Counted from the first letter of the stretch, positions 10,637 through 64,000 are shown. The stretch: DNA of 64,000 bases from a virus (IMGVR_UViG_2675903278_000002), one strand, 5' to 3'. The notes: generated by a model not told the origin, from the sequence alone. Program-made: numbers and translations.

Positions 10637-10679
10637 CTAATACTAGAAAACAATTTGTTTAAAAAACAAAGGAAAGCAC

Positions 10680-12020
10680 ATGACCGAACTTTGCCATACA
10701 GGACGCGGGCTGTCCGAAGAGTTTGATGAAGATTTCCAGAACAGACTGACGGCATATTTTTGTCGTGATCACGAGTTTCTTACTCGTGCGGGAGATCTGG
10801 TTGTGCCTAGCCAATTTGCCAATGCGGCCAATGCCATATTGGTTAATATGGTTTCGGGCTATTACCGTATGTACAAGAGCGCGCCCTCTTCATCTGCAAT
10901 TCTGGATATGCTTAAGCGTGCGAAACGCGATAAGACTATCCGTGAGGAACTATTCGCCGATGTTGTTGCTGCGTTTAAGCGCATCCTTGCAGAAAAATTG
11001 TCCGATACCTCGTACATGGTTGACCAGGTATCAACCTTCGCAAAAAGCGTAGCGTTTGATGATGCTCTGATTAAGGCTGCTGAACTGAAAGAGAAGGGCG
11101 ACTTTCAGGGGGCGATGGCAATCATGGCCAAGGTTCAGCAGATTGGATCGAACGAAGCGACCGGAATCTATGACTACTACACCTCCGCAAGTGAGCGATT
11201 GAAAGCGCGTGAATATGAGGCTTCAGAGGAGTATGTACCAAACAGTATTACAACTGGACTCCCTCTTCTCGATAGGTTGCTGTACCAAAAAGGCTGGGCA
11301 AAGCGCGAAATGGTGCTCTTCATGGGGTTCGCTAAATCCGGTAAATCGACCGCAATGGGTGAGTTTTCCATAAACGCAACGCTTGCTGGCTACAATGTTC
11401 TGTATCTCTCGCTGGAGGTTCACACCAACATTTTGTCCGACCGTTTTGATGCAAGATTGTCGGAGACGGAAATGTCCAAGTTGGTGGAACGGCGCGATGA
11501 AGTTCATCGTAAGTTGGCAGAGTTGGGAGCCTCTAAGGGGATTGGTAGTTTGTGGGTTGTTGAGCGTCCGTCAGGAAGTATGTCACCGGCAGATCTGGAC
11601 CGTATGCTTAACAGCATGAAAGCCAACGGCATGGTGCCTGATATGGTTGTTGTCGACTACGCAGATTTGATGCGTGCCAGTTATGACCTTCGTGATGATC
11701 GCGCCAACATTCGTAGTATCTACACCGATTTACGTGCTCTTTATGACAAACATAACGTTGCTGGAATCACGGCATCGCAGACAAACCGTGAAGGTGGCGC
11801 GTCAGAAGTTGCCACAATGATGCACGCCGCCGATAACATCGAAAAAGTACGTATTGCTGACCTGGTAATAACGATCAACAAAACCGAAGAAGAAGAAGCG
11901 AAAGGAGAGGCTCGTCTCTACTTTGCTGGTTCACGTAACCAGCAGGGTGGGATCAGCATTCGCGTTAAACAAAACCTCGAACAAATGCGTTTCATTGAGC
12001 GAATCTTAGACGTTACCTAA
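10680..12020 (+). CDS. DnaB-like replicative DNA helicase
   Basis: Walker A GFAKSGKST in a RecA-like C-terminal domain; 446 aa; adjacent to primase. Confidence 0.8.
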   Translation: MTELCHTGRGLSEEFDEDFQNRLTAYFCRDHEFLTRAGDLVVPSQFANAANAILVNMVSGYYRMYKSAPSSSAILDMLKRAKRDKTIREELFADVVAAFKRILAEKLSDTSYMVDQVSTFAKSVAFDDALIKAAELKEKGDFQGAMAIMAKVQQIGSNEATGIYDYYTSASERLKAREYEASEEYVPNSITTGLPLLDRLLYQKGWAKREMVLFMGFAKSGKSTAMGEFSINATLAGYNVLYLSLEVHTNILSDRFDARLSETEMSKLVERRDEVHRKLAELGASKGIGSLWVVERPSGSMSPADLDRMLNSMKANGMVPDMVVVDYADLMRASYDLRDDRANIRSIYTDLRALYDKHNVAGITASQTNREGGASEVATMMHAADNIEKVRIADLVITINKTEEEEAKGEARLYFAGSRNQQGGISIRVKQNLEQMRFIERILDVT

Positions 12021-12101
12021 AAAATAAGCGTGGAGAACACCTCCACGCTTGATTCATTTGTGAAACAACTTTTCTTTTGCCAAACCACAAAAGAAAAACA
12101 C

Positions 12102-13280
12102 ATGAGCCTTTATGTTATATCAACATTTAGGTTGGTCACAATATTGCCTGTTAAAAGTGGAATTATCGTGAGCGAACTGAAAGAGCTAATTACCGAATTA
12201 GATTTTGAACAATGGTTGGACACTGAAGGTATCGTTTATCGACGTGGAGGCGTGAGTGCTCGCGGTCGTGAAGTGAATATCAAGGAGTGTCCGGTATGCG
12301 GCAGCTCCAACTGGAAGGTATATTTCAATCTGACCAGTGGCGTAGGCAAATGCTTCGCTGGTGATCATCCCGAAGAGATTCAGTTCAATAAGCTGGTCTT
12401 CCTCAAGCACTACAGCGGCAAATCACGACGACAGTTCGAGGAATATGTGCAGAACGCTCTTCTTTCCCAGGGGTGGGCACCAAAGAAAGAAGAGATAGTG
12501 CTTGCAAGCACAGTCGAGTTAGAGGGACCACTTGCACTCCCTCGTCATTACGAACTTCCTATAGATGGTCGTCTTCCAGACTATCTGGTTGAACGAAACA
12601 TATCGCCTGAAATGGCAAAGTATTTTGACCTACGATACTGCGTCGAAGGCAAGCACGCTTATGTAGATCCGTATACAGATCAGGTTAAAGGACAGATATT
12701 CGATATGCGAATACTGATACCGGTTTACGATCTGGATGGGGTAATGAAGACATTTCAGGGGCGAGACATTACCGGTACAGCTGAACGTCGCTACCTCTTT
12801 CCTATGCAGCTTCCAGCTTCAGGTAAGTTTCTCTACAACGGCCATAATGCGGTCGGCAAACAGACTGTAGTTGTCTGTGAGGGGGCGTTCGATGTTATGG
12901 GGGTTAAACGAGCTATTTTTGATGAAGAAACATTACGTGATTACGTGGAACCGATAGGAACGTTCGGGATGCATCTATCTGGTAACACCACTCAGGATGC
13001 AGAAGATCAGTTAGGCGCGTTCCTGACGCTCAAGGCGCGTGGGTTACGTAATGTGATCATGATGTGGGATAGTGAAAAGCAAGCTATACGTAATACGATG
13101 GCCGCAGCCAGGCGACTGACCAGTATTGGTCTTAATGTCAAAGTGGCGTGTTTGGGCGAGGAAGGACTCGACCCGGGCGATGCAACGCCAGAGCAAATCA
13201 TCAAAGCCTATTATCGGGCAAAACCGTATACCAAGCAGTTGGAGTTACAAAGCAAGGTTTTGGGCATTAAGGCTCTATGA
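12102..13280 (+). CDS. DNA primase (zinc-binding domain plus TOPRIM)
   Basis: CPVCGSSNWKVYFNLTSGVGKCFAG zinc ribbon; TOPRIM-like VVVCEGAFDVMGV; ATG 12102 is preceded by the recurrent AAAAACACATG context; the longer GTG 12030 start lies inside a hairpin. Confidence 0.75.
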   Translation: MSLYVISTFRLVTILPVKSGIIVSELKELITELDFEQWLDTEGIVYRRGGVSARGREVNIKECPVCGSSNWKVYFNLTSGVGKCFAGDHPEEIQFNKLVFLKHYSGKSRRQFEEYVQNALLSQGWAPKKEEIVLASTVELEGPLALPRHYELPIDGRLPDYLVERNISPEMAKYFDLRYCVEGKHAYVDPYTDQVKGQIFDMRILIPVYDLDGVMKTFQGRDITGTAERRYLFPMQLPASGKFLYNGHNAVGKQTVVVCEGAFDVMGVKRAIFDEETLRDYVEPIGTFGMHLSGNTTQDAEDQLGAFLTLKARGLRNVIMMWDSEKQAIRNTMAAARRLTSIGLNVKVACLGEEGLDPGDATPEQIIKAYYRAKPYTKQLELQSKVLGIKAL

Positions 13281-14190: not shown

Positions 14191-14673
14191 ATGGCGGTAG
14201 TTGTGAAAGCTGATTTGTCAAAAATCCCTTCTATTTCAGGAAATAACGGTTATTCACTTCGTTGTGAGGAAGTAAAGATAAACGGTGAGTCGGCATATTG
14301 CAGCTATTCCGTTTGCCAGCACACCATTCTTGCCTTCAAAGAAAACCGTCTTCCTCGAACTTCTTTCCAGTCGTGCGCAACCGCTATTAAAGCAGGCAAA
14401 TGCAAGGCGTTAAAAATGATGGTTGAAGAGATTCGTAAAGGAGAATCTCTGTATTTCGAAGATATGACCGCGCTCATTAAGGAGGTTGAAGAACGGAATA
14501 AACAAGCCAGAACTATAAAACGAAAACGTGACAGTGTAACGATTAATAGCATGGTTAAGAAGAGCACCACATCACAAACAGCGATCACTGACGTGTATGC
14601 GGCGTTGCTTGAAGAAACAACAAAAGAAACACATGAGCAAATCGATCAACATATGGAGGCAAAACAACAATGA
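14191..14673 (+). CDS. Hypothetical protein
   Basis: 160 aa ORF; stop overlaps the ligase start. Confidence 0.5.
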   Translation: MAVVVKADLSKIPSISGNNGYSLRCEEVKINGESAYCSYSVCQHTILAFKENRLPRTSFQSCATAIKAGKCKALKMMVEEIRKGESLYFEDMTALIKEVEERNKQARTIKRKRDSVTINSMVKKSTTSQTAITDVYAALLEETTKETHEQIDQHMEAKQQ

Positions 14674-15992
14674 AAAAGTTGATCGCACTTAAGCATAAGC
14701 TGGACGAAATGAAAGCTATGGGAACCAATGCAAAAAAAGAGGCATTGGCCAACATGGATGACTTCGAGCAAAGCATGGTTTCATTGATGCTCAACCCTTT
14801 CATCCGTTTTGGGGTAAAGAAATACAAAGTGGCAGAGCCGCTTAGTGAGTCCGTCCCAAGTGACGAAAAAGCCATTGATATACTGAATAAGCTGGCCTCT
14901 CGCGAGCTGACGGGGAACGCAGCAATAGCTGCTGTTGAGTCTATCGTGGCGTCAATGTGCGCCGATGGGCAGGACGTGTTCCGTCGTTTCCTCTTAAAAG
15001 ATCCGAAAGCTGGCGTTGGGATTAGCCTATGCAACAAGGTTTTTGAAAATCCCATTCCGAAATTTGAGGTGCAGCTGGCGTCACCGTATAAAGAAAAAGG
15101 CGACAAATACCCCTTCAAGCCAAATCCTAAAGCCAAATGGCCGATGATTGGCAGCCTTAAGCTCGATGGTTTGCGAGTAATTTGTGAGGTTATTGTTGAC
15201 GAGGAAGAGGTGAACTTCCTTTCTCGTACTGGTAATCCAATCACGTCTCTCGATCACCTAAAGCCAGCCATGCTCGAATTAGGCAAACTTTCAGGCCACA
15301 AACACATCTTCTTCGATGGTGAAGGAACAGCCGGTTCATTTAACCAGTCCGTATCTGCATTGCGCAAAAAGAACGTGCAGGCAATTGGCGCTATTTATCA
15401 TGTTTTCGACTTCTTCCTACCGGAATGGCGGGCACAGGCTAAATCCAAAGAGTATGCAAAGACAGGTATGAAGCTGAAAGAGCGCCTGGCTATTCTCGTG
15501 GCGTTGTTCAAAAACGATCGCAGTGAAGACTACGCGCAAGACATTCACCTACATCCGTTCTACATCATCCATAGCCACGAAGACTTCATCGAACGCTTCA
15601 TGAAACGCCTGGACGATAACGAAGAAGGGGAGATGGGCAAAGATCCGAACTCTGTTTACGAGTTTAAACGTACCCGCAGCTGGTGGAAGTTAAAAGACGA
15701 AGATTCAGAAGATGGTGAAATTATCGACTTTGAGCCGGGCGACCCGGACTCTGGTTTTGCCAACACACTTGGAAAAATTGTTATTCGTCTTGAAAACGGC
15801 GTCATCGTTCGTGCGAGCGGCATTAAGCATAAATATCTGGACGAGATCTGGAACAACAAAGAGAAGTACCGTGGTCGTATTGTCGAGGTTCATTGTCACG
15901 AGAAAACACCGGACGGCAGCTTACGCCACCCACGACTGAAATGGCCGCGTTGCTTACGCGATACAGAAGATCGAATCGGAGATAAAGAATGA
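14670..15992 (+). CDS. ATP-dependent DNA ligase
   Basis: Adenylation motif KxDG in GSLKLDGLRV; 440 aa. Confidence 0.8.
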   Translation: MKKLIALKHKLDEMKAMGTNAKKEALANMDDFEQSMVSLMLNPFIRFGVKKYKVAEPLSESVPSDEKAIDILNKLASRELTGNAAIAAVESIVASMCADGQDVFRRFLLKDPKAGVGISLCNKVFENPIPKFEVQLASPYKEKGDKYPFKPNPKAKWPMIGSLKLDGLRVICEVIVDEEEVNFLSRTGNPITSLDHLKPAMLELGKLSGHKHIFFDGEGTAGSFNQSVSALRKKNVQAIGAIYHVFDFFLPEWRAQAKSKEYAKTGMKLKERLAILVALFKNDRSEDYAQDIHLHPFYIIHSHEDFIERFMKRLDDNEEGEMGKDPNSVYEFKRTRSWWKLKDEDSEDGEIIDFEPGDPDSGFANTLGKIVIRLENGVIVRASGIKHKYLDEIWNNKEKYRGRIVEVHCHEKTPDGSLRHPRLKWPRCLRDTEDRIGDKE

Positions 15993-16803: not shown

Positions 16804-17579
16804 AAATACAATGATAAGTATTTACTTACTTATCTTTTATGTATAAGATGACTTTGTTTTCGTTGAGACGCGACTGTTTGAACTTAAATACAAGTGCAAA
16901 CGAAGAAGTCTATCTGGCAGTAGCCTAATAAGCCAAACACCAGCGAGGTCAGTTTCCAGCCTCGTTACCGAAATGGGACACACTGAGCGAGTGTGATTGC
17001 AGAACGCAGGAGGGAACATGAGTGTTCCCTCCGATGAAGTAACAGAATGGGCGGTCGGTATATTTTCAACTCAATATGACTCCCGGATTCTTAGCCACTG
17101 ACCGCCCATCCTGTTACGTCATTTTGTTCAATTATGTCGTTTATACTGGGTTAAAAAGCGGCGGCGTAGCCCGGCTGGTATGGTTAGCCAGCACACAACG
17201 TTGAGGCCATTACATTTTTATCAATTCTAAGGTTCTATTCACAGAGATACCGGCGAGCGTTGATATGTAACATGTTGGGCAAACATTCAATCGGAGTAGT
17301 GGCCTCAACGTTGTGAAGACAGGATTGTTGTGTAGGTTTAACCACTGTTGCCATTGGTGCCTGTTTTCACAACAAATGATTCCATACATCACATTGTATA
17401 AATTACAAAGTAGGCGCTGTCCTCAAAAACATCATCTACTTAAAGATTTTGTCTTCTATTGAGCGAAGTCGAAAACGTCTGGCACTAACGAAAAGTGCAA
17501 GTAGCGGTGCGTTTCCTGGCAGAAACTAACACCGCCGCGATTGGCACTGTTGAGTAATAAATACTGTCAGTGCTGAATT

Positions 17580-17654
17580 GATGGTGTAGCTCAGCGGTAG
17601 AGCAGTTGGCTGTTAACCAACTGGTCGGTGGTTCGAATCCACCCACCATCGCCA
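17580..17654 (+). tRNA. tRNA-Asn (anticodon GTT)
   Basis: Manual fold: 7 bp acceptor stem GATGGTG/CACCATC, D-arm TAGCTCAGCGGTAGAGC, anticodon loop CTGTTAA, T-loop GGTGGTTCGAATCCACC, 3' GCCA. Confidence 0.75.
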
Positions 17655-17656
17655 AT

Positions 17657-17732
17657 GCCGGTTTAGCTCAGTTGGTAGAGCGCCTGCCTTGTAAGCAGGA
17701 TGTCAGCGGTTCGATCCCGTTAACCGGCACCA
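17657..17732 (+). tRNA. tRNA-Thr (anticodon TGT)
   Basis: Manual fold: acceptor GCCGGTT/AACCGGC, D-arm TAGCTCAGTTGGTAGAGC, anticodon stem CCTGC/GCAGG with loop CTTGTAA, T-loop GGTTCGATCC, 3' ACCA. Confidence 0.75.
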
Positions 17733-29600: not shown

Positions 29601-30200
29601 ATGGGCAATCTCATCATTGACGCTGTTAAAGCATCACGTCCGTTCGAAATGAATCCTAAGCGTTCTGCCGAAATCAACGTACTCATGACACGTATGGCGG
29701 CTGAAATGGGCTTGGGTGAGGAGTTGATACGCCCGACTATTGGTATTAAACCCAAAATCATGATCATTCTGGACAATGCGAACGGCAATGACGCTCGTAC
29801 CGGCTACTTCATGGAGAACGGATACGACGACTTTAAGGCAAAACTACTGACAGTTGGAGATCTGCGCATGGGCGATCTTTATGTCACGGGTGTTTGTAAG
29901 AAGGTTAAAGACAAAGAGAAAGACTATACCAAAGACGAGATAGGCCAGTTCACAGACTTTATGCGGGAAGAAATTAATCTTGTACGACCAACCTACATTT
30001 TGACGTGTGGTAGTCGTTCAACCGCACTATTTAACAATAAGAGTAAACCATCAGATCTGATTGGTCGTAAGGAGTACTTCCCAGAGCTTGATGCAACCGT
30101 CTTCTACGGATTTAACCCGAATATCCTGTACTTCCGACCGGAAGAAGGAGAGCGACTGGAGGCCATTCTGGCTGATATCGCGGAGACAATAAATAAGTAA
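26682..30200 (+). CDS. dnaE: DNA polymerase III alpha subunit (DnaE-type) with N-terminal PHP domain
   Basis: 1172 aa; catalytic-core motif GRGSSAGSLVAWCIGITNVDP and FERFINPER characteristic of DnaE; ATG preceded by AAAAACACATG. Confidence 0.9.
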   Translation: MKALMVRTDFSLGESALKAENAVKIAREAGYTAVISADSMNIASVIPLQRAAGDDMAVICGVKLNIVDDPTYEHRAKLAKESMRCMESLERGRNYSFTALIKNEQGYRDICELMTAANTREQFYFVPRLSLEQLVSTYAKGNIILLTSDIGSVFQRNDFAKIISTLITAGGKDNFYSVVYPHPTPFYDQINVRAMKVASALKIEPVAFYPAYYESIDDADIKDIAHMVTNNIKIDQPHRLRIPHQRDNAVNGRRHLLEALKAFSVRMDVPVTAAMASTTQDTIIDSCTWRWHELPPALPKMADDEPATLMKLAVAGLRKRLTTKEFGYTPPASENRVYVERLKYEMDTLTRLGFCGYFLMVRDLMNHSRETGIPVGPGRGSSAGSLVAWCIGITNVDPIRHGLLFERFINPERLDLPDADLDFSQARRHEVIEYLNERYGEDYVAGIPNFTYLGAASALRDTARIYGVESADMAVSKELKNAEDDSLPLEELREQLASLDKYATKYPDAFNAACKLQSLMRGFGRHAAGMIVAGVPLTERTPVERRGDARCIAFDKRYCEAMGLIKLDVLGLATLDLLDSAKRYIKENTGEDINLDAISLEDRKVLDGFAAGYTQGVFQLESGPMRKLLKDLGGGIEPMSFKTVVATTALFRPGPIQSGMLDDYVSVAKGFMTPESLHPVLDELTAETNGVILYQEQTMNATRLLAGFTMAEADAVRSAIGKKNMEKMKSMGEKFIVQAQAGWIDVELEDGTTQRIHRAEHFKCEDGTLKTVEEALEHGAKLPINAVRVTASHPGLSEMKAKEIWTAFEKNGAYQFNKSHSVAYSLISYQSMWLKTHYPAEFFAAALTILGEDKHQGLVKDALTYGIRVLPPDVNVSSNRIEIRTLEDGSQALYAPFSAVKGCSENGCQAIMRAREKVGGKFESVAQFDEAVEKRACNSRVRESLHKVGAFASIEPGSLPATDPERLRDQAELMGNLIIDAVKASRPFEMNPKRSAEINVLMTRMAAEMGLGEELIRPTIGIKPKIMIILDNANGNDARTGYFMENGYDDFKAKLLTVGDLRMGDLYVTGVCKKVKDKEKDYTKDEIGQFTDFMREEINLVRPTYILTCGSRSTALFNNKSKPSDLIGRKEYFPELDATVFYGFNPNILYFRPEEGERLEAILADIAETINK

Positions 30201-30205
30201 TAAAG

Positions 30206-30232
30206 AAAACCCGCCTGTTGGCGGGTTTATAA
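30206..30232 (+). terminator. Terminator hairpin downstream of the polymerase gene
   Basis: AACCCGCC-TGTT-GGCGGGTT hairpin followed by T-rich tail. Confidence 0.6.
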
Positions 30233-30503
30233 AGAATTATGGCGCTTGTTGAGGAAGTCACTCCTCTTACGCACTTTGTTTTGCCATGCCGGCAGTTAGC
30301 TTCTGCCTTTGACTATTCATGCGGCAACCCCGCATTTCGCCACAATGGGCAATTCACTTTTATGGAATAAACTGGCCGTTGTGTCGATTTAATTAGCATG
30401 GCCTTACCATGCTAATTTATTCAACTTGTACAATCCTGCAAATCTATCCACTCAGGCTTACACCGTCTTCGTTATTGTAGAAATGAGGATCATCAGCGTT
30501 GAA

Positions 30504-30719
30504 TCAGCTTAGAGCAACGACATTTGCTGCTGCTGGGCCTTTAGCCCCATTCTCGATAGAGAATTCGACCTGCTGGCCTTCTTCCAAAGTGCGGAAATTA
30601 TTACTCTGAATTGCCGAAAAATGTACAAAAACATCTTTACTGCCATCAGCAGGAGAAATAAAGCCAAAGCCTTTATCAGAGTTAAACCATTTTACTAAAC
30701 CAGTCATTTTATTAGACAT
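30504..30719 (-). CDS. cspA: Cold-shock protein (CspA family)
   Basis: [21 protein letters not shown]... RNP1-like motif; 71 aa from the internal ATG at 30719. Confidence 0.85.
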
Positions 30720-31048
30720 AGATATTACCTTCTTAATTTTGTGAGCCACATAGTGCGGCGAGAATTTGATCTGTATAGATTGGGACTTACTTAGGCACTT
30801 AAGGAGGAGACTCACGAAGAAGGGAAATCAGAAGATAACACTGAACTGAGACTGCTTTACTAAAACTGCTTACATAAGGTCTGTCTTGCAAACCAACGAT
30901 GCTATTAACGCATACCCCTTCTTTTCATGCAACCTTTATTTTTCAAAGATAACTAATTTTTGTCACCATTGGTTTAGTAAACGTTAACGAACCAGACGAT
31001 GCCAGACACCTTTACAGAGAACAGATGCCCGCCAATTGGCGGGCATCA

Positions 31049-31612
31049 TTATGCGCATTTCGCAATATCTTTGCGGCGTTTAATCAGTTTCTCCGCAATT
31101 TGCTCTATTTCGTTGAAATCTTTCGAGACGCTGTTTCGAAGCGCCAGATTCCATTTACTCAAAGTTCGGGCATTTTGGACAATTTGATCGCCCTCTTTAA
31201 GTCGTCCGTTATTCATGAGCCATTCAGCCACATCAGCCCAATCCCAGAGAGGAGACTGGCCTTTTATGCGTTGTACAGGGCAAGGGAAGTCGCCGCTTCC
31301 GCGCTTACCGTCTTTGAGCAACGCCACTGCCTGGCGAGACAGGTCTGTCAGTTCCGCGATATCGCTTAAGCCCACAAGAGCCGAGTCGACGGATTCAACA
31401 ATTGCACCGATACCGGCTGATTCAATATTGTCGACCGCAGATGCGATAGCTGCATCAAGTGATTGTGCTTCGCGGTCAAATTCTACATAGACGGAGTTTC
31501 CATATGCGCAAATTAGCGCATCGTCACAGCCGTTTTGGTACAGCGCGTCTTCCAGTCCTTCCGTCTCATACGATACGCCTGAGAGCGTCAGAGTGAAGTT
31601 ATAAAGCGCCAT
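31049..31612 (-). CDS. Hypothetical protein; second gene of a minus-strand two-gene operon
   Basis: AAGGA RBS 5 nt before the ATG at 31612; no motif assigned with confidence. Confidence 0.45.
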   Translation of the reverse strand: MALYNFTLTLSGVSYETEGLEDALYQNGCDDALICAYGNSVYVEFDREAQSLDAAIASAVDNIESAGIGAIVESVDSALVGLSDIAELTDLSRQAVALLKDGKRGSGDFPCPVQRIKGQSPLWDWADVAEWLMNNGRLKEGDQIVQNARTLSKWNLALRNSVSKDFNEIEQIAEKLIKRRKDIAKCA

Positions 31613-31672
31613 AGTTTTCCTTTGAAGATAGTTGGACAGTTTCTGCAAAAGGCGGCTAATGCCGCCTTGAAA

Positions 31673-31897
31673 TCATTTACAACGATCAACCATTCGTTTG
31701 ATCTGTTTGGCATGGTTTTCGGGATTACCCGGAGTCGACCATACGCTCATTTGGTGAGTTTTGTGTTCACCTTCTGGATTACCGCATCGCAGTCTGCAAA
31801 AACAATGTGCAGCACCACCAGCTGCTACCCAGATCCAGCCTTTACTTAATGCATAGTCAATGGCTGCTTGAATATGCTTATTCGGATGTTGCTTCAT
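31673..31897 (-). CDS. Small protein (74 aa), weakly HicA-like; toxin candidate
   Basis: MKQ... start and segments KGWIWVAAGGAAH / SVWSTPGNP loosely resemble HicA; precedes a larger gene in the same operon. Confidence 0.35.
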   Translation of the reverse strand: MKQHPNKHIQAAIDYALSKGWIWVAAGGAAHCFCRLRCGNPEGEHKTHQMSVWSTPGNPENHAKQIKRMVDRCK

Positions 31898-32150
31898 TCG
31901 CCTCCGATAATAGTATTCTATTCACAGTGTTGACATCTGTCAACGGCGACTGAATTTCATCCGTTCATGCCACACCCCCATCCATCTCATGTATGTGACC
32001 TAAAGATGGTCAGCACAGCTTACCAAAATAAGACAACTAATTATCTTCGGTGATCTCAATATTTCCCCTGAACAAAGTTGACATGACGCCATAAACCCGT
32101 TCTCTGTTTGATATAATTGATACAGATTTTATAAGTAGGAACCTATTAGA

Positions 32151-32582: not shown

Positions 32583-32699
32583 TTTTTGATAGATAATAAG
32601 TAAGTACTGATCTATCATCTAACAGCTCGAAAGAGCCACGAATGAACGAAAGCCCAACGCGCATAGCGCCATCGGCCAAATCACAACAAGGAGAAACAC

Positions 32700-33728: not shown

Positions 33729-33743
33729 TCCCATTACGTGACC

Positions 33744-42000: not shown

Positions 42001-43086
42001 ATGACTTTGCCATACGGCGTCATTTCTGACTGCCACTACCACAAATGGGATGCGTTCTCCACGACGAACGCTGAGGGGCTTAACTCCAGACTTGAAATAC
42101 AGTTGGAAGCAACGAAAGAAGCAGCCATCGCCATGAAGAAGGCCGGTTGTAAGTACATGTTGGTTGCCGGTGATACATTTCACGTCCGAGGAACTGTGTC
42201 CCCTTCTGTTTTGCATTACGTAACTGAAACGTACAAGTGGATTATCAACGAGCTTGATCTGACAGTAGTAATGCTGGCCGGTAATCACGATCTTGAAACC
42301 AACGATTCAGTATATAGCGCCAACGCAGCAGCATCGCTGAGTTCTATCGGCGTGGTAATCGTATGTGGCAAGCGCCCACACTCAATAAAAATTGGTGATG
42401 TGACTGTCCACCTGATTAGCTGGCGTAACAATCATGCGGAGCTTATCAGCGATCTGAAAGCATTACGTAAGAGCGTAGAAGGTGATAATCATGACGTTGT
42501 TATCCATACATCCATTAACAAAGCCATTCCAACAATGCCTGACGTCGGTATCGATGCGCAGGAGTTAAAGGATATCGGCTTTCGTCTCGTGCTTAGTGGG
42601 CATTACCACAACCACAAAGAGGTCATTCCTGGAGTTATCAGTGTCGGTGCACTGACTCATCAAAATTGGGGAGATGTTGGATCTCTGGCTGGCTACATGA
42701 TCGTAAACCCGGACGGCAGTTTCAGTCACTACGAAACCAGTGCGCCTAAATTCATTAACCTGGAAGATGATGTTGCTGATGACCAAATTCGCGGCAACTA
42801 CGTGCGTTTCCGCGCCGTAATTGAGAACGATGAAGAAGGCATTAAGTACCAGAACATCCTCAAAACAATGGGTGCAAAAGGTGTCGTGTGCAACTTCATC
42901 CGTAAGTCATCAATGATGGAAGGTACAGCCAGCACAACTGAAACCAGCAAAATCGATAGCCTGGGAGAGTCGGTATCTGCTTATTGCAAGATTGTCCACG
43001 ATACTGACGGCGGATTTGATCTGAGCAAATTGGATATTTTGTGTCAGGAAATCCTCACCGAAGCGGAGAGTTCGGAGGCTGTGTGA
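42001..43086 (+). CDS. sbcD: SbcD/Mre11-like nuclease (calcineurin-like phosphoesterase)
   Basis: Metallophosphatase motifs GVISDCHYH, LVAGDTFH, MLAGNHD; followed by the SbcC-like ATPase gene. Confidence 0.8.
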   Translation: MTLPYGVISDCHYHKWDAFSTTNAEGLNSRLEIQLEATKEAAIAMKKAGCKYMLVAGDTFHVRGTVSPSVLHYVTETYKWIINELDLTVVMLAGNHDLETNDSVYSANAAASLSSIGVVIVCGKRPHSIKIGDVTVHLISWRNNHAELISDLKALRKSVEGDNHDVVIHTSINKAIPTMPDVGIDAQELKDIGFRLVLSGHYHNHKEVIPGVISVGALTHQNWGDVGSLAGYMIVNPDGSFSHYETSAPKFINLEDDVADDQIRGNYVRFRAVIENDEEGIKYQNILKTMGAKGVVCNFIRKSSMMEGTASTTETSKIDSLGESVSAYCKIVHDTDGGFDLSKLDILCQEILTEAESSEAV

Positions 43087-43315
43087 AGCAAAGTCGTTAT
43101 GGGAGCTTTCGAGACTTTGCCATCACGATGAAAAGACTTGAACGAGGCCAGACGGTGATGTTTCACAAGCCCTACCCGCCACAAGGAAATCCCGTAGCGT
43201 TTTATCTTGGAAGGTTAACAAGAAAAGGCGTATTGAGGCGCAGATCCTTCCCGGCGCATACGGAGTTCAGATTGAAAGAAGGCCAAAAGCTAACACGCGG
43301 TATCAGAGGTGTTAT

Positions 43316-45232
43316 ATGAAGTTTTTAAAGCTCCAGGTTGAGAATTTTATGGCTATCGCCAGCGCGGAGGTCGAGTTAGATCAGCGTGGTTTAGTGCTTA
43401 TTCAGGGTGTTAATAGTGATGATAGTTCCGCATCAAGTAATGGCTCTGGAAAGTCAACTCTAATGAATAGCCTGATGTGGTGTCTTTATGGCGAAACAGC
43501 TCATGGTGTGAAGGGTGACGATGTGTTGTCTACCGACCATGAAAAGAACTGTCGTGTTGCAGTAACCATCGAGGATGAAGGCAAGAGATACGCAATCATT
43601 CGTCACCGTAAACACAAAGAGTTCAAAAATCGTCTTATCGTTCGTGGTGAAGATGGCGATATGACGAAAGGCAAAGATGCGCTGACGCAGGAGTTCGTCG
43701 AGCGTCTGATCGGTGCATCTAAAGAGGTTTTCATGGCTTCCATCTATGCGAGCCAAGAAGCTATGCCAGATTTACCTGGAATGTCCGACAAAAACCTCAA
43801 AACCATCGTAGAAGAAGCCGCTGGCGTTGACAGACTGACACGCGCCTACGCTATTGCTCGTGAGCGAGCTAATGCAGCTGCCGCACGTATGGATGTGGTT
43901 AAAACCAAATTGGAGTCGACAATCTCGACCATTGAGGCAACACAGTCAGAAATTGAGTCAGCGAAAGCCTCCTCTGAATCATGGGAGCAAGAGCGTTCTA
44001 AACGTTATGACGATGCCCTGGCTGGGCTGGCCAGTGCCGAAGTTGAGTTAACGGAAGTTGAACTTGAGATCCGCACTCTTCCCGAACAGATACGTGATAC
44101 CGAGAAGGCAATCGAAAGTGAGCGCAAAAAGTTAGCCTCAAAAGAAGAACATGACGCCAAGTTGCTCAAAGTTCGTGGTGCGATAACTGATATTCGGGCA
44201 AGCATCAAAGCTACAGAAAATAGTCAGGCTGATGCAATGAACCGCGCGCGTAATTTTAAGACCAAAGCAGAAGAGGTTGGTACTAAAGTGGGATCACCAT
44301 GCCCTACTTGTGGCAAAGCCTACTGCGAAGAAGATCTATCAACGGTGAAGGAGAGTTTCATTGAACAAGCACGTCAGGAAATTGGTCAGGCGAAGACACT
44401 TGCAGAGGCAATGGCTAAACACAAAACGAATCTTGAGAAAGCGTTAAGCATTGAGTCTGCCCTTGTTAAAACGACACCTGATGTAACGGCTATCATTGCC
44501 CGGATTGAAGAGCTTACGAAACAACTCTCATCTTTGCGTCATCGTGAGAAGGAGGTTGTTGCTATTGAGTCTCTTGTGACTCGTGCTCGTACTGAGGTCG
44601 ATCGTATATCAAAAGAGATTAATCCGTTTATTGCTCTTATCGCCAGACACGAAGATAACTTGGTATCCAGTAAGTCTACCTTCAAGTCCTTAAAAGATGA
44701 GTCGAAGGCTATTCAGGAACAAACGTTGCTATTGGAAAAAGCTCGTCAGGTCTACTCTCCTGCCGGGGTGCGTTCTCATATTTTGACGTCTGTTACGCCT
44801 TTCCTGAATACACGCACTGCCGAGTATCTCAATACGTTGTCTGACGGGAATATTACTGCTGAGTGGTCGACGATGGATGTCACTAAAAAAGGTGAGTATC
44901 GCGACAAATTCAACATTAGTGTGCAGAAGAAAGGTTCAAGTAAGTCGTTCCAGACCCTCTCTGGTGGTGAGAAGCGGAAGGTTCGCATTGCGTGTTCTTT
45001 GGCATTGCAGGATCTGGTTAGTAACCGGGCGAGTAAAAACATCGATTTGTTTATCGGCGACGAAATTGACGATGCACTCGATACAGCCGGTCTTGAACGC
45101 CTCATGGGTATTCTGGAGTCCAAAGCTCGCGAGCGAGGTACTGTGCTGATTATCTCCCATAAAGAGATGAAGTCATGGTTCCGGGAAACTATTACGCTGG
45201 AAGTTAAAGAGGGGCGCAGCTATGTCGTTTAA
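43316..45232 (+). CDS. sbcC: SbcC/Rad50-like ATPase
   Basis: N-terminal Walker A GSGKSTLMNS, central coiled coil with CPTC zinc hook, C-terminal signature LSGGEKRKV and D-loop. Confidence 0.85.
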   Translation: MKFLKLQVENFMAIASAEVELDQRGLVLIQGVNSDDSSASSNGSGKSTLMNSLMWCLYGETAHGVKGDDVLSTDHEKNCRVAVTIEDEGKRYAIIRHRKHKEFKNRLIVRGEDGDMTKGKDALTQEFVERLIGASKEVFMASIYASQEAMPDLPGMSDKNLKTIVEEAAGVDRLTRAYAIARERANAAAARMDVVKTKLESTISTIEATQSEIESAKASSESWEQERSKRYDDALAGLASAEVELTEVELEIRTLPEQIRDTEKAIESERKKLASKEEHDAKLLKVRGAITDIRASIKATENSQADAMNRARNFKTKAEEVGTKVGSPCPTCGKAYCEEDLSTVKESFIEQARQEIGQAKTLAEAMAKHKTNLEKALSIESALVKTTPDVTAIIARIEELTKQLSSLRHREKEVVAIESLVTRARTEVDRISKEINPFIALIARHEDNLVSSKSTFKSLKDESKAIQEQTLLLEKARQVYSPAGVRSHILTSVTPFLNTRTAEYLNTLSDGNITAEWSTMDVTKKGEYRDKFNISVQKKGSSKSFQTLSGGEKRKVRIACSLALQDLVSNRASKNIDLFIGDEIDDALDTAGLERLMGILESKARERGTVLIISHKEMKSWFRETITLEVKEGRSYVV

Positions 45233-48938: not shown

Positions 48939-48973
48939 GGTGGGGGATATCCCCACCTTCTCTTTGATTTGTA
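48939..48973 (+). terminator. Terminator-like hairpin downstream of nrdA
   Basis: GGTGGGG-ATAT-CCCCACC followed by T-rich tail. Confidence 0.55.
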
Positions 48974-49039
48974 AGCCTTGTTTAAACACATAAGATAACA
49001 ACTTGTTTAAACGCACCAAAAAAGAAAAAGGAAAAACAC

Positions 49040-50182
49040 ATGTCATATTCAACGTTCCGTTTGGGTGCTAATGATGCAACCAAAGAGCCTATGTTCCTCG
49101 GACAATCTGTCAACGTGGCACGTTACGATCAGCAAAAATACCGTGATTTTGAAAAGTTGATTGAACGTCAATTGTCTTTCTTCTGGCGGCCGGAAGAAGT
49201 TGATATTTCGAGCGATCGTATCGACTTCAACACGAAGCTGCGGGACCACGAACGTCACATTTTTCTGAGCAATCTCCGTTATCAAACGTTACTCGATTCA
49301 GTTCAGGGACGTAGTCCAAATGCAACGCTGCTGCCGCTTATCTCTATTCCTGAACTGGAAACGTGGGTTGAAACGTGGTCTTTCTCTGAGACTATCCATA
49401 GCCGCAGCTACACCCACATTATTCGTGGCATGGTGGACGATCCGAGCATTGTTTTTGACGGTATTGTTACGGATGAAGAAATCATCAACCGAGCGATCAG
49501 TATCTCTGCTGAATATGACAGGCTTTATGGGATGACCTGCGAGCGCCAGTCGTTAGGTGAGAAGGAATTTGAGCGTCTGTACGTAAATGAATATGGCTGG
49601 GAGCCATACCCTTTGCACCGTCAGCTTTTCCGCACGTTGGTGTCCATTAATGCGCTTGAGGCGATCCGTTTCTATGTAAGTTTTGCATGTACGTTTGCCT
49701 TTGGCGAACGGAAGTTGCTTGAGGGTAACACCAAAATTATGCGCTTTATTGCCCGTGATGAAGCTCTGCATTGCGAAGGAACTGAACGCATGATCCGCTT
49801 CATGCGTACCGGTCGCGAAGGTTTATTGTGGAAAGAGATTGCTGCTGATGAAGAAAACGTCATTTACGACACCATGAAATCAGTCGCCGAACAAGAAATG
49901 AACTGGGCAGACTATCTCTTCAAAGACGGTTCGATGATTGGTTTAAACGCGGATATTCTCAAAACCTATGTAAAATACCGCACCAATCTGGCTATGAATC
50001 GTCTTGGCCTGAAGGCTTTATTTCCAGAGGTTACCACCGATCCGCTGGTCTGGATGAACAAGTGGTTGTTAACCGACACACTGCAAATTGCACCACAAGA
50101 GGCAGAGCAAAGCACATATCTGGTAGGTCAGATCGATTCTACCGTGGATAAGGCTTCTCTAAGCCAGTTTGCAGACCTGTAA
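49040..50182 (+). CDS. nrdB: Ribonucleotide reductase beta subunit (NrdB)
   Basis: 380 aa; di-iron ferritin-like motifs ([20 protein letters not shown]); adjacent to nrdA. Confidence 0.9.
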
Positions 50183-58468: not shown

Positions 58469-58963
58469 ATGGCACGTCAAACCTATTTCACTTCTGCAAC
58501 TAAACGTCCTCGTTCACTACGTCAAATTTTGGCCGAATTATTTAGCGGTCGTGTTCTGTCACGTCTTGATGAACTAGAGACTGCCGTTCGGTTGCTGAAT
58601 GAACGTTTAGATAAGCAAGCGTCAGTTGTTGCGAACGTGGGGGCGATTGTTACCTCTGGTTCTTCACGCGAAGCGAAAAGTACACGGCCTTTAGTGAAGG
58701 AGAAAAACAACAAGGACAGTTCGAATGGAAAATTTTCAAAGAAAGAGGCTGAAACCAATGGCCTACGTTCTCATTATAGTTTCACTGGCGACGATAGCCG
58801 TTCCAGCCGGCCAGAGCCTTTTGATGCCGGGTTCATCCATCACCACACCTCCGTCGACGACAATTACCACCACTCCAGTAGAGCGTCCTGTCACTCTGGA
58901 TGGGATGACGGTGGATGCGATACCTCAAGTTCATCCAGTTACTCAGGATCATGCTGTGACTAA
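58469..58963 (+). CDS. Hypothetical protein (C-terminal half low-complexity; true extent uncertain)
   Basis: 164 aa ORF; overlaps an alternative frame encoding a signal-peptide protein (58758..58976). Confidence 0.25.
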   Translation: MARQTYFTSATKRPRSLRQILAELFSGRVLSRLDELETAVRLLNERLDKQASVVANVGAIVTSGSSREAKSTRPLVKEKNNKDSSNGKFSKKEAETNGLRSHYSFTGDDSRSSRPEPFDAGFIHHHTSVDDNYHHSSRASCHSGWDDGGCDTSSSSSYSGSCCD

Positions 58964-59161: not shown

Positions 59162-59254
59162 CGGCTGTTAGTGCATATGCATTGACCATCTCTGCGTAAG
59201 CAATTTATGTAATTAGAAAACAACTTGTTTTGACAAATAATAAAAGGAAAACAC

Positions 59255-59680
59255 ATGTTAGGTTTCTTCAAAAAGAAAACTCGTAAAGCTGTTATCGAAG
59301 TCAAAAAAATGGAGAACCGTGATGCGGTTGAGGCCACCGTGTGGGGCGCGTACATGATCTCCTATGCCGACGGCACATGTGACGCAAAAGAAATTGCCAT
59401 TCTTGAGAAGACAATTGCAGCTCTGCCTGCGTTTTCTCCGTTTGCTGGTGAAATTGCCCAAATGAGCGCCAATATCCGTGCTCGTTACGAAGCGTCCCCT
59501 CGTTCTGCTAATGCACAGGCTATTCGTGAGCTGTCTGATATTGCGGGTACTCCAGAGGCGGTCGATGTTCTGTGTCTGTGCCTTGATATTGCCGACCAAG
59601 ACGGTATTGGCGAACAAGAAGAGCTGGCCCTGAAAAAGATCGCACAGGCGCTTCAGTTGTCACTGGATGCTTATCTCTAA
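59255..59680 (+). CDS. Hypothetical protein, possibly TerB-like
   Basis: 141 aa; segment VDVLCLCLDIADQDGIGEQEELALKKIAQALQL resembles TerB-type helical domains; GGAAAACACATG start context and upstream AAACAACTTGTTT palindrome. Confidence 0.4.
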   Translation: MLGFFKKKTRKAVIEVKKMENRDAVEATVWGAYMISYADGTCDAKEIAILEKTIAALPAFSPFAGEIAQMSANIRARYEASPRSANAQAIRELSDIAGTPEAVDVLCLCLDIADQDGIGEQEELALKKIAQALQLSLDAYL

Positions 59681-59838: not shown

Positions 59839-59841
59839 TGA

Positions 59842-59870
59842 CAAGGGCCAAATGGCCCTTGTGTTTCGTT
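59842..59870 (+). terminator. Rho-independent terminator
   Basis: CAAGGGCC-AAAT-GGCCCTTG followed by TGTTTCGTT. Confidence 0.65.
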
Positions 59871-59977
59871 GACCGAAATAGAGAGTTTGCACCTTTACGT
59901 TTAGCTTGCTCCCCTTTTATGCCACATCACAATAAAGCCAATAAGAAAACAACTTGTTTAAGCATTAGGAAAAACAC

Positions 59978-60547
59978 ATGTGCAAGAAATGCAAAGCGAT
60001 AGCTGATGAACAAAACGCCTTATTCGAAGAAATGGATGCTAATGAACTGGTCAAAATGTTAGCCATTCTTCGAGGAATAGAAGACGTTTCCATATTTGAG
60101 AGAGTGGTTACAGCACTTAATTTTGAGTCCACCTTTGAAGAGCCAACTCAGGTTGTAGCTTTAGCACATCATTTCGGTGTTCATTATCTTGCTGAAAAAG
60201 AGCGCGCTGATAAGTTGCAGGCGACTTTGGATATGGTGAGCGAGACTCAACGAACTGATGACACTAACAAGAGTGAGGCGATTATTGCCAGCAAAGATCG
60301 TGAAATTGCTGGGCTTAAATCCTCTCTAACGATGTTGATGTCTGCGTTCAATCTTATGTCTTCTCAGGCGGGTTATAAAATGCCATCACTAAACAGCGAT
60401 GATCCGATGGCCGTTCGTCAGCTTTTGGGAGCAATGGCCGACCAACTCGACGACACAAAGAGTCGGCTTGAAGACATGATGCGTGAGTTAAGCCATCGAC
60501 ATAACCTCGCAACACAGCCACACAAAGCCTTTCAAAGCTCTAATTGA
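59978..60547 (+). CDS. Hypothetical protein
   Basis: 189 aa ORF with GGAAAAACACATG start context. Confidence 0.5.
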   Translation: MCKKCKAIADEQNALFEEMDANELVKMLAILRGIEDVSIFERVVTALNFESTFEEPTQVVALAHHFGVHYLAEKERADKLQATLDMVSETQRTDDTNKSEAIIASKDREIAGLKSSLTMLMSAFNLMSSQAGYKMPSLNSDDPMAVRQLLGAMADQLDDTKSRLEDMMRELSHRHNLATQPHKAFQSSN

Positions 60548-61604: not shown

Positions 61605-63290
61605 ATGAATACAGCCCTTTCCATCATCGACGATGCCAACTCAAACACTGCTATCGACTATCGGCAGGAAATGAACGTCATCCACGAAATTGTGGCCGAG
61701 TGCGAGAAAGAGATCGCCTTCATGTATCAGGTACACGACTTCGTTTATGGCGACGAACGCCACAACATGATTAATCGCCTGCTGAGACTAAACCATCGAC
61801 CAGATGAAGATCGCTCGCGTTTAAATCGAGGTTGGTTGGATAAAGTCGATCTGGAATGGGTGAAACAGAATATTTGGGCCGAGTACTGGAGGAAGGTCAC
61901 GGACATGACTAACGTTTTGCTGATCATGCCAGCTTCCCGTCGAGATGAGTGGCGCGAGCAGTTTATAGAGGGCAAACAGGAAGTCATCAAAACTGACAGA
62001 ACCGGCTACCAGATGAAGGTTAAAGAGTTCGTTGGTGTACCGGAGTTCAAAGCAGAAACGGTCATACCCACGATGCTTAATTTGCTGAATGACAGGCACA
62101 AATATCTCTCTGAGCGCGTGTATGGCTTGTTTAAGGCGCTGAGTCCTGCGCACAAGACAAATAAGACAAACGGTTTCAGCGAACGTCTGATAATCGCTGA
62201 CTGCATTTCTGATTTCTGGCGGGACAGCGTTAGTGTGAACTATCGCAAAGAGGACTATATCGACGATCTGCGTGTCTTGCTTCATTTCTTCGCGCACAAA
62301 GAATTTATTACCATCAACCGCACTGCTGAGGTGCTATCAGCTGCGTATCGGGCAAACGACTGCCAGACCGGTGACTGGATGAACGTCGATGGAAATCTAA
62401 TGCGCGTGAAGATGTTCAAGAACGGCAACGTTCACTTTGAAATACATCCTGACGTGGCCTGGAAGTTGAATGAGGTGCTGGCTTACAGTATGCCTGCTGC
62501 AATCCCCGCGCCATGTCGCACCGCGCCAAAAACACGGGCACCAAAGCAGTTCGGGTTAATCCAGAAGACGATCTCCGTGCCGGTTCGCACTGCGCTTCGT
62601 GACGGGCGATTAAGCAAAGACAAAGGCGTATGGTACTTCTCTGATTCAGCTCTCCAGAAGTCGCAGGTGGAAGAGCTTGAGCGCACACTGAGCTTCATTG
62701 GCGGCGTGCAGGAGAAAAAGCACTGGCAGTTCCCGTATGAGATCGGCCATACGCTAAATACGATTGTGGCTACCGGATTAATACCGGATACAAAATCACA
62801 CCAGTTCTACCCTACCCCACGCTTGATTGCTGAGTACGTTGCCAGAGCCACTGAATTGAAGTCTGGTGAGAAGCTGCTGGAGCCTCAAGCCGGACGTGGG
62901 GATCTTCTGGCCTATATCAACGCCGATCTGGAAGATGTTACCTGCATAGAAATCGCACCTCTCTTCGCTGATATCCTGCGCGGAAAAGGGTATACGAACA
63001 CGATTTGCTGCGACTTCATAAAGTGGTCTGAGGACAACGTAGGTTATCAGTTCGACAAAATCGTTATGAACCCGCCGTACTCGCTTGGTCGTCATAGAGA
63101 GCACACGCTGGCTGCGCTGGGGCATCTGAAAGTCGGCGGGCGTCTTGTAGCAGTATTGCCGGGCACTGCGCCAATACTGGACTGGATGACGATGGATAAT
63201 TACGTTTATGCCAGAGGGAAGTCGTTTACCAACGAGTTTGAAGACACAGGGATCACAGTCAGCGTATACGTTTTCAAACGCGTTAAATGA
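61605..63290 (+). CDS. Large protein with C-terminal DNA methyltransferase domain (N6-adenine or N4-cytosine class) and an uncharacterised N-terminal domain of about 400 aa
   Basis: C-terminal SAM-binding-like LEPQAGRGDL and catalytic NPPYS. Confidence 0.55.
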   Translation: MNTALSIIDDANSNTAIDYRQEMNVIHEIVAECEKEIAFMYQVHDFVYGDERHNMINRLLRLNHRPDEDRSRLNRGWLDKVDLEWVKQNIWAEYWRKVTDMTNVLLIMPASRRDEWREQFIEGKQEVIKTDRTGYQMKVKEFVGVPEFKAETVIPTMLNLLNDRHKYLSERVYGLFKALSPAHKTNKTNGFSERLIIADCISDFWRDSVSVNYRKEDYIDDLRVLLHFFAHKEFITINRTAEVLSAAYRANDCQTGDWMNVDGNLMRVKMFKNGNVHFEIHPDVAWKLNEVLAYSMPAAIPAPCRTAPKTRAPKQFGLIQKTISVPVRTALRDGRLSKDKGVWYFSDSALQKSQVEELERTLSFIGGVQEKKHWQFPYEIGHTLNTIVATGLIPDTKSHQFYPTPRLIAEYVARATELKSGEKLLEPQAGRGDLLAYINADLEDVTCIEIAPLFADILRGKGYTNTICCDFIKWSEDNVGYQFDKIVMNPPYSLGRHREHTLAALGHLKVGGRLVAVLPGTAPILDWMTMDNYVYARGKSFTNEFEDTGITVSVYVFKRVK

Positions 63291-63351
63291 TAGGTAAATA
63301 CTTACCTAATTTGTGTAAGAATGTAGTTACTAAACGATAAGAGAAAAACAC

Positions 63352-64000
63352 ATGAACAACCTCCAGTTAGAGCATTTTAACGTCACAGGCCATTCTGATT
63401 TTCCTTTCAAGTTTACATTGAAAGGTTATGCAGAGGATGCGGTAGGCCAGATCATTATTGATAAAGGCATCGTTAAGTTTGAGGGGGATTTTGATGAATC
63501 CGCGAAAACATTCATAGACTTCGTTGCCAAACGTTGGAGCGAGCAATGGAAAAACCTGGAAAAGCGCGCCAATGAGTTTGATCGGTTCATGGATGCAATG
63601 GATACAGCAAAAGAGGCTCTTGATGCCGGGACTCCGTTAGATCTGGAGTCACTTTTCAACGGCGAAGTGGCCTCTGCGATGTTCGCCACCATGTTCGCGG
63701 GTGAGTTCGTCCGCAGCGGTGCCAAAAACTACCTTGAGCTGGATTACAACGTCCCTGCAATTGGCGATTTCGTCGTTACCATCCAACGCAAAGAAGGTAA
63801 GACGCCAGGTGAACGCGTCGCAGAACTTGAGGCTGTTGTGGATCAGCGTAACGGAGAGTGTGACCGTTTGATCAACGAGCTTCATGCACTTCGGGAAGAA
63901 AGAATATGCGCGGGTAGCAATACACGTAATGCAGCGGATATCTACTTCCAGTTAGTTGAGGAATGCCAGATTCCACCAGGCGGCTCTCTTGTCGATTACG
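63352..64000 (+). CDS. Hypothetical protein, 3' partial (runs off the window)
   Basis: Open frame from ATG 63352 to the window end with GAAAAACACATG start context; absent from the ORF track, presumably because no stop lies in the window. Confidence 0.45.
   Translation, partial: MNNLQLEHFNVTGHSDFPFKFTLKGYAEDAVGQIIIDKGIVKFEGDFDESAKTFIDFVAKRWSEQWKNLEKRANEFDRFMDAMDTAKEALDAGTPLDLESLFNGEVASAMFATMFAGEFVRSGAKNYLELDYNVPAIGDFVVTIQRKEGKTPGERVAELEAVVDQRNGECDRLINELHALREERICAGSNTRNAADIYFQLVEECQIPPGGSLVDY

Follow-up and report, generated by a model that had tools for sequence, protein, structure and literature searches.

The DNA analyzed here, called the window below, is a 64,000-nt stretch of the viral sequence IMGVR_UViG_2675903278_000002, with a G+C content of about 45% and nearly all of its genes on the + strand. 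Judged by its identity to known genomes, it is part of an SSU5-like phage-plasmid: the region at 25000-45000 shares 98.5% identity with Escherichia phage Cyrano, which is the phage-plasmid pLF82 carried by E. coli LF82, and about 80% with Salmonella phage SSU5, and the whole window is equivalent to about 20-84 kb in the Cyrano genome of 108 kb. According to Pfam matches and the Cyrano annotation, tail fiber, lysis, toxin-antitoxin, and partition genes are followed by a long DNA-metabolism block, which encodes a DnaB-like helicase, primase, ligase, CobT/CobS-like proteins, DNA polymerase III alpha (Pol III alpha), UvsY, a gp32-like single-stranded DNA-binding protein (SSB), an exonuclease, a RecA-like protein, RepA, SbcCD, RuvC, NrdAB, MazG, ThyX, Pnkp, DHFR, a methylase, and RNase H. 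The element also holds a T4-like gene set (gp32-like SSB, UvsY, RecA/UvsX-like, UvsW, RNase H, Pnkp, and NrdAB). About 14 early genes, belonging to DNA replication, recombination, and nucleotide metabolism, open with a common ...AGGAAAAACAC-ATG context.

The original prediction had listed 13 starts sharing such a context. All 13 are ATGs at the heads of open reading frames (ORFs), although the one at 37294 is marginal and a further copy at 14627-14635 (ATG 14633) had been overlooked; the 14 sites counted here are those 13 plus ATG 14633. All lie on the + strand. The first is the start of the DnaB-like helicase gene (AAAGGAAAGCAC-ATG, 10668-10682, ATG 10680), conserved across 25 distinct orthologous leaders, followed by that of the primase leader ORF (AAAAGAAAAACAC-ATG, 12090-12104, ATG 12102), which has the top model score of 20.7 bits, and that of a short ORF located upstream of and overlapping the ligase start (AAAAGAAACAC-ATG, 14621-14635). 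Further along are the starts of an AAA+ (CobS-like) gene (AAAGGAAAAACGC-ATG, 25254-25268, ATG 25266), Pol III alpha (AAGGTAAAAACAC-ATG, 26670-26684, ATG 26682, within the 3' end of a small ORF at 26504-26707), the gp32-like SSB (CAAGGAGAAACAC-ATG, 32688-32702, ATG 32700), a small membrane protein (ATAGGAAAACAC-ATG, 36156-36170, ATG 36168), a DUF7238 gene with the marginal copy GGATAAGAAAAC-ATG (37282-37296, ATG 37294; 7.3 bits, E 3.4), and a 91-aa acidic protein with the exact copy AAAGGAAAAACAC-ATG (37763-37777, ATG 37775). Exact copies are also found at the SbcD-like nuclease (41989-42003, ATG 42001), whose leader AUCAAAAUAACCACAAAGGAAAAACAC lies downstream of a -10-like TAGAAT at 41964-41969, at the ribonucleotide reductase beta subunit NrdB (49028-49042, ATG 49040), and at a 189-aa protein without assigned function (59966-59980, ATG 59978). 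The remaining two sites start a TerB/TciA-like gene (AAAAGGAAAACAC-ATG, 59243-59257, ATG 59255) and an Ead/Ea22-like gene (AAGAGAAAAACAC-ATG, 63340-63354, ATG 63352). Twelve of the sites start genes with Pfam/PHROG matches or conserved orthologues, and those at 12102 and 14633 start short ORFs. Among the sites listed previously, four are exact and nine are within one mismatch, while 10680, 36168, and 59255 differ at 2-3 positions when aligned from the ATG. As a separate observation, the Cyrano orthologue of the 37294 gene (58630-58635) has ATA in place of the ATG start (AAAATATAACAGCT versus AAAACATGACAGCT in the window) and is given an ATT start in the deposited record; by this comparison, it may be inactivated in Cyrano.

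Allowing at most one mismatch, GGAAAAACACATG occurs nine times in the window, all on the + strand, against 0.10 expected from shuffled sequences. The shorter AAACACATG occurs 11 times, again only on the + strand, with 1.0 expected; it is the commonest 9-mer of the window when no prior assumption is made, and it is among the top three 9-mers of SSU5. On the + strand of the window, an ATG directly follows 11 of the 33 AAACAC copies (about 0.5 expected) and 6 of the 6 GAAAAACAC copies, and on the - strand, no AAACAC is followed by ATG. A sequence-only covariance model built from the 14 window sites, without use of SSU5, found no further site in the window and none on its - strand, but it recovered 13 sites in SSU5, all at orthologous genes; across the window, Cyrano, and SSU5 it gave 41 matches, all on the + strand and at gene heads. 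No Rfam 15 family overlapped a motif site at the gathering score, the matches being a cspA thermoregulator and two tRNAs. An exact 14-mer scan of IMG/VR was uninformative, with single chance matches in unrelated contigs among the matches listed.

The logo of the 14 sites shows G at -9 (11/14), A at each position from -8 to -4 (11-14/14), C at -3 (13/14), A at -2 (13/14), C at -1 (14/14), and A at +4 (10/14), preceded at -20 to -11 by A and C almost exclusively. A Shine-Dalgarno (SD) sequence, GGA or AGGA at -10 to -7, is present in 11 of the 14. The GG is missing at the other three (AAAAGAAAAACAC, AAGAGAAAAACAC, and AAAAGAAACAC, with just AAGA/GAGA), and all three keep AAACAC. We rejected a -10 element or leaderless promoter, as AAGGAA at -12 to -7 does not resemble a -10 and the sigma70-like elements are found further upstream. 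A role at the DNA level, such as a methylation or primase site, was rejected on the strict ATG register and the strand specificity.

The same positions place ACA at -4 to -2 in 13 of the 14 sites, and the element encodes several toxin-antitoxin systems (KacT, RelE/ParE, and HicAB), which together allow for an RNA-processing site: an endoribonuclease, e.g., MazF at ACA, would cut in or next to AAACAC and leave quasi-leaderless mRNAs with a 3- to 4-nt leader during stress or abortive infection. This would follow the MazF "leaderless mRNA" idea reportedly put forward by Vesper et al. in 2011 and said to have been disputed since. However, ACA is not depleted in the motif genes (14-65 per gene, observed/expected 0.72-1.30) or on the window + strand (0.99), so that MazF would shred the motif mRNAs themselves. 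In addition, an SD would be pointless for a leaderless message and yet is kept at 11 of the 14 sites, and no RegB-like or other site-specific RNase was identified. We regard RNA processing as very doubtful.

In the complete Cyrano genome, the motif sites are confined to about 32-86 kb, the DNA-metabolism region, and neither the motif nor a CAC before the start was found in any of its 25 late structural or lysis genes. Cyrano's 110 other annotated starts have C at -1 in 23% and C at -3 in 15%, and CAC stands directly before the start in two of them. These other genes use varied ordinary SDs (AGGAG, GAGGT, and TAAGGAG) with unrelated spacers and are mostly tightly packed or overlapping. The motif is a mark of one gene class, not a genome-wide ribosome-binding site (RBS). 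In the plasmid state, no motif gene is among the Cyrano genes expressed above background, and ciprofloxacin induces Cyrano 39-fold (PMC9928086).

For comparison among relatives, we used two sets of 80 IMG/VR loci, one centered on SbcD orthologues with 77-100% protein identity and the other on helicase orthologues. In orthologous start regions of relatives with as little as about 78% protein identity, the leader and often the SD diverge, and (A)ACAC-ATG persists. The variants are aaggaaaaacac, aagggaaacac, agagggaaacac, and cgaggaaaacac for NrdB, aaggagaagacac, aaggaggagcac, and agggtataaacac for the 37775 gene, and ggaaaagacac, ggaaaatacac, and ggaagaacac for SbcD. As the distance from the SD to the ATG is variable, the conserved block is anchored to the ATG. 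Pairwise identity at -6 to -1 was 0.77-1.00 (mean, about 0.89) for seven motif genes, compared with 0.49-0.95 (mean, about 0.65) at codon third positions and 0.84-0.97 at positions 1 and 2 in the same sequences; in 12 control genes, -6 to -1 (about 0.65) was like their third positions (about 0.61). Conservation of the motif is thus on a par with that of nonsynonymous sites, a pattern of purifying selection on -6 to -1 in the motif genes, as read from these alignments. The most divergent lineage (L076-L081) additionally has the motif at NrdA, RecA, and SbcC, which have ordinary contexts in the window, so it has been gained as well as kept. Selection on AAACAC across diverged relatives argues for a putative module of translation initiation common to these genes.

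These data also bear on the simplest explanation, a generic purine-rich SD with chance similarity in an A-rich genome. AGGA is indeed an ordinary SD core, and A-rich spacers are common and favorable in E. coli (PMC7264876), but the counts (9 versus 0.1 and 11 versus 1.0 expected, with the top 9-mer of the window), the CAC before only 2 of 110 other starts, and a -6 to -1 block conserved like nonsynonymous sites refute it, and we give it next to no credence. The earlier claim that the context goes far beyond a generic SD came out stronger than it was made: the conserved core is the AAACAC adjoining the ATG, and conservation is not confined to the purine-rich SD, which varies in both sequence and spacing across sites and lineages.

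Another source of the similarity could be recombination, with the 12- to 20-nt leader AACCACAAAGGAAAAACAC serving as a short-homology cassette boundary spread by gene conversion or module shuffling, as in the T4-type promoter-early stem-loops (PeSLs). Four leaders (12102, 36168, 37775, and 42001) have AACCACA(A/T)AGGAAAA(A)CAC in common, a sequence absent from the orthologues of 36168 and 37775 in the SSU5 lineage, which suggests lineage-specific homogenization. The phage encodes RecA/UvsX-like, UvsY, SSB, and exonuclease proteins, and the gains in L076-L081 are multinucleotide changes. On the other hand, the shared stretch is very short, the sites have unrelated sequences just upstream of it, and the core is fixed in an ATG register that recombination alone does not demand. 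Single-position variants (aaatac, gagcac, and aagacac) resemble the outcome of mutation and selection and not that of wholesale replacement. We therefore consider recombination an unlikely account of the motif as a whole; it may contribute to the 19-nt AACCACAAAGGAAAAACAC in the four leaders, leaving the ATG register unexplained.

At two of the sites, the motif ATG opens a leader ORF instead of the annotated gene. ATG 12102 opens an ORF of 22-23 codons with a conserved peptide, MSLYGIQ..RLIKILP.K (12102-12170 in the window; L004:35837-35908 in SSU5). Its stop overlaps the primase ATG (ATGA) in SSU5, L126, L156, and L161, and it is fused in frame to primase in the window, L121, L146, and L148; the deposited Cyrano and SSU5 annotations place the primase start downstream of it. 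ATG 14633 opens a short ORF (14633-14692) and the ligase starts at 14670. In SSU5 (L004:39590-39630), the ligase leader ORF has 12 codons, ends with TAATG on the ligase start, and has an ATGA overlap with the preceding gene, which makes a chain of coupled starts; its reading frame in the window differs from that in SSU5. These arrangements would fit a ribosome-loading site feeding a coupled downstream start. The proposed use of the motif as a marker of true start codons held up, with the caveat that the motif ATG at primase and ligase opens a short leader ORF that is separate in some lineages. A hairpin at 12070-12097 (TTTTCTTTTG-ccaaacca-CAAAAGAAAA) pairs the SD-like part of the translation initiation region (TIR) of the primase leader. 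Its 6-bp core, CUUUUG/CAAAAG, is invariant in nine lineages, which makes covariation there uninformative, and one extension pair changes from T-A to C-G. This hairpin is a possible translational attenuator of primase.

The motif was also predicted to be part of a combined promoter-proximal/RBS module. This was supported insofar as a gap of 43-254 nt lies ahead of 12 of the 14 sites, often with a hairpin and/or palindrome and sigma70-like elements, but the motif is anchored to the ATG with no fixed upstream element, there are two palindrome types, and two sites are internal (26682, inside a small ORF, and 14633). Hairpins and promoter-like elements lie ahead of five to six motif genes. Strong terminator-like + strand hairpins were found upstream of five (12102, 36168, 37294, 49040, and 59978): one between helicase and the primase leader at 12025-12051, one at 36080-36100, and others at 37219-37238, 48939-48957, and 59841-59862. 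At the head of the unit starting at 36168 (36080-36138, + strand), the hairpin is followed by a sigma70-like TTGAAA-17-TATTAT (36110-36138) whose spacer contains the palindrome ATAAGTACTTACTTAT.

The first palindrome type is operator-like, with the copy AAACAAnTTGTTT (= AGAAAACAAnTTGTTTAA; extended, (AG)AAAACAAnTTGTTT(AA)) at 10648-10660 and others at 6881-6893, 23030-23042, 37265-37277, 48996-49008, 59218-59230, and 59947-59959. These seven window copies compare with 0.45 expected, and five of them sit 8-32 nt upstream of a motif copy. On the + strand, with at most three mismatches, AGAAAACAAnTTGTTTAA has 12 matches in Cyrano and 14 in SSU5. In the variable 87-100 kb of both genomes, a TGnGATAAT-type -10 precedes it by about 11 nt, which puts it at roughly +5 to +22, and this palindrome-promoter unit is abundant there in front of ordinary SDs, unlinked to the TIR motif. 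By analogy with the C1 operators of P1, the palindrome looks like a dispersed operator for a master repressor. A second operator-like family (ATAAGTAcTTACTTAT, TAGGTAAatacTTACCTA, and TAAGTAAGTA; 36120-36135, 63291-63308, 16814-16832, 9865-9874, 32597-32606, and 41878-41887) occurs within or beside sigma70-like elements, such as TGTGTAAGAAT upstream of 63352, and is kept in relatives upstream of 9896, 13359, 14191, and 37775. The TIR motif is found behind either palindrome type, behind neither, and at the two internal positions. Since the palindrome-promoter copies elsewhere precede ordinary SDs, the TIR motif and the palindrome are independent parts, not a fused module.

Taking these results together, we lean, by a modest degree, toward the motif being an ATG-anchored, unstructured, A/C-only, cis-acting, and class-specific ribosome-loading module for the first cistrons of early units. 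It would be a family-specific TIR of SSU5-like phage-plasmids, consisting of a modest SD (A/GGA, sometimes absent), about five A residues, and a CAC abutting the AUG, usually with A at +4, and it would close a short leader built almost wholly of A and C. Free 30S subunits would load de novo at the motif, on the first cistron or a short leader ORF. The units served would be lytic early/middle ones encoding the helicase, primase, ligase, Pol III alpha, SSB, SbcD, NrdB, and a few small proteins, and their downstream genes would rely on ordinary SDs at tight or overlapping junctions. Because an A/C-only stretch is unable to self-pair, the start site would stay open whatever gene comes next. Consistent with this, the predicted opening energy of -18 to +12 was lower for the motif genes than for other phage genes (5.7 versus 8.9 kcal/mol; Mann-Whitney p of about 0.001), and A was the best base in the spacer at -7 to -4 in E. 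coli FlowSeq data (PMC7264876). We infer that the motif acts in translation and needs no dedicated factor.

Several points weigh against such a factor-free module. The low opening energy is in part a trivial result of A-richness. The published randomization spans only -7 to -4, where C is unfavorable (PMC7264876). Neither unstructuredness nor A-richness explains why C is fixed at -1 (14/14) and at -3 (13/14), as AAAAAA or AAUAAU would be equivalent. The best host TIR ought also to serve the highly expressed late structural genes, and 0 of 25 have it. The class restriction and the directional spread to new genes are equally expected of a regulon operator. A literature search found no expression, transcription start site (TSS), or ribosome-profiling data for SSU5-like phages. 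With C-1 and C-3 left unexplained, an operator for an RNA-binding translational regulator, which the original prediction had also offered beside an RNase processing site, stays a live rival.

Such an RNA operator, in which a phage or host RNA-binding protein would recognize ...GGAAAAACAC-AUG on about 14 early mRNAs and repress or activate their translation jointly, is in our estimate distinctly less probable than a loading module, but by far the strongest of the alternatives. It would account for the sequence-specific conservation of C-1/C-3 beyond the needs of accessibility, for the limitation of the motif to one temporal and functional class and its absence from late genes, and for its spread to further genes in one lineage; that the genes expressed in lysogeny include no motif gene (PMC9928086) also agrees with it. 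On the other hand, no match to the RegA family (PF01818) was obtained among about 70 window and Cyrano proteins scanned with Pfam or PHROGs. The proteins without assigned function whose genes carry the motif are acidic (pI 4.1-5.1), unlike RNA binders, and they were accordingly rejected as autoregulated RNA binders. An antisense or trans-acting small RNA (sRNA) was rejected as well: the full complements of the motif in Cyrano are only the sites' own opposite strands, and a partial trans sRNA candidate at about 94.57 kb of Cyrano (- strand) is not conserved in SSU5.

The best candidate regulator within the element is CYRAN_114, a full-length FljA-family protein of 173 aa encoded outside the window (Cyrano 100780-101301, - strand; L002:38780-39301). 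Its entire length matches PF03614, "Repressor of phase-1 flagellin" (E 1e-80), and its C terminus has a weak Sm/Hfq-like similarity (E 5.5e-4, below threshold); against PDB sequences, only insignificant LSm7 matches were obtained. Its SSU5 orthologue is 78% identical, and a FljA-family protein is encoded by at least 88 IMG/VR contigs, among them almost every SSU5-like contig longer than 100 kb, i.e., it is near-core. FljA-type proteins prevent translation of fliC mRNA (PMC2652032), and in Salmonella arizonae/diarizonae and Citrobacter, the fliC TIR, AAGGAAAAGAUC-AUG, matches AAGGAAAAACAC-AUG at 10 of 12 positions. However, the Salmonella fliC TIR differs from the motif precisely at -3/-2, the E. 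coli fliC TIR (AUAGGAUAACGAAUC-AUG) and CYRAN_114's own TIR are without the motif, and CYRAN_114 is not among the lysogeny-expressed genes (PMC9928086). Among the matches listed, a FljA homologue was not detected in the L077/L081 lineage, where use of the motif is greatest, and the phage homologue may merely silence host flagellin. That the AAACAC-AUG sites are operators through which a FljA-family protein holds or switches off the whole lytic DNA-metabolism regulon translationally is, in our view, improbable. If this were true, SSU5-like phage-plasmids would have a post-transcriptional layer of lysis-lysogeny or early-late control, and the Salmonella phase-variation repressor FljA would be a domesticated phage translational repressor. 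As a separate point, the near-core homologue raises the question of whether Salmonella FljA is derived from such elements. More generally, a dedicated RNA-binding regulator of any kind would mean a RegA-like system outside the T4 group.

Further features were observed in the window. The sequence GGTGTTAAGTTTGATGG, at 660-670 and 1428-1438, lies inside the tail-fiber gene (27-3437) and appears to be an internal repeat of the fiber shaft. Two adjacent tRNA genes (17580-17651 and 17657-17729) are located between the ligase block and the integrase/repressor genes; the Cyrano annotation has three (Asn, Thr, and Ser) at the equivalent place. The Rfam cspA thermoregulator (30479-30897, - strand, 185.7 bits) accompanies a gene for a cold-shock protein of the CspA family, located downstream of Pol III alpha and on the other strand; this is an accessory gene for an RNA chaperone and has a thermosensing leader of its own. 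Four + strand copies of CTATAGTGGAT (39221, 39496, 40489, and 40510) flank or lie inside repA (39303-40358, - strand) and are probably RepA iterons.

E. coli, Salmonella, and Klebsiella commonly harbor SSU5-like phage-plasmids, some of them with resistance genes. Control of their switch from plasmid maintenance to lytic replication is very poorly documented. The motif defines a candidate regulon, and C-1 and C-3 offer a precise mutable target for distinguishing a cis-only module from a translational regulator. It also improves annotation, both for the primase/ligase leader ORFs and for the choice of start codons generally. If the A/C-only leader is efficient, it could be used in expression design, as it would be little affected by the downstream gene.

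A literature search found no description of this motif, of regulatory motifs in SSU5-like elements, or of their TSSs or lytic transcriptomes. Among known systems, the T4 RegA regulon is similar in having a short A-rich sequence in a fixed AUG register at a dozen or so early DNA-metabolism genes, and a T4-like gene set is present in this element as well. RegA binds at the starts of numerous early mRNAs, chiefly those for replication, and shuts off early replication genes. Its site is AU-rich, in contrast to the AAACAC-AUG here; moreover, no RegA-family protein was found among the about 70 proteins scanned, and repression at the present motif is hypothetical. Strong E. coli TIRs, as represented by the FlowSeq optimum (PMC7264876), share an SD about 7 nt from the start, an oligo-A spacer, and low structure, but a fixed CAC at -3 to -1 is in no described optimum that we found, and the phage's own late genes do not have it. 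With FljA-fliC of Salmonella, the common points are a FljA-family protein that is near-core in SSU5-like elements and some fliC TIRs that resemble the motif at 10/12 positions; E. coli fliC, however, is without the motif, and the FljA homologue gene, a candidate regulator, lies outside the window. The T4-type PeSLs are likewise repeated, conserved intergenic control sequences heading early genes, with sigma70-like promoters, hairpins, and possibly module shuffling. They belong to another phage group and have no sequence similarity to the motif, and what is conserved here is the ribosome-binding stretch adjoining the ATG and not a promoter/stem-loop, so that the palindrome-promoter repeats of these elements are a closer analogue of PeSLs than the TIR motif. 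Conserved phage start regions and early cassettes are known from T4 RegA sites and PeSLs, and the present motif is a variant of that kind in a different and clinically common group.

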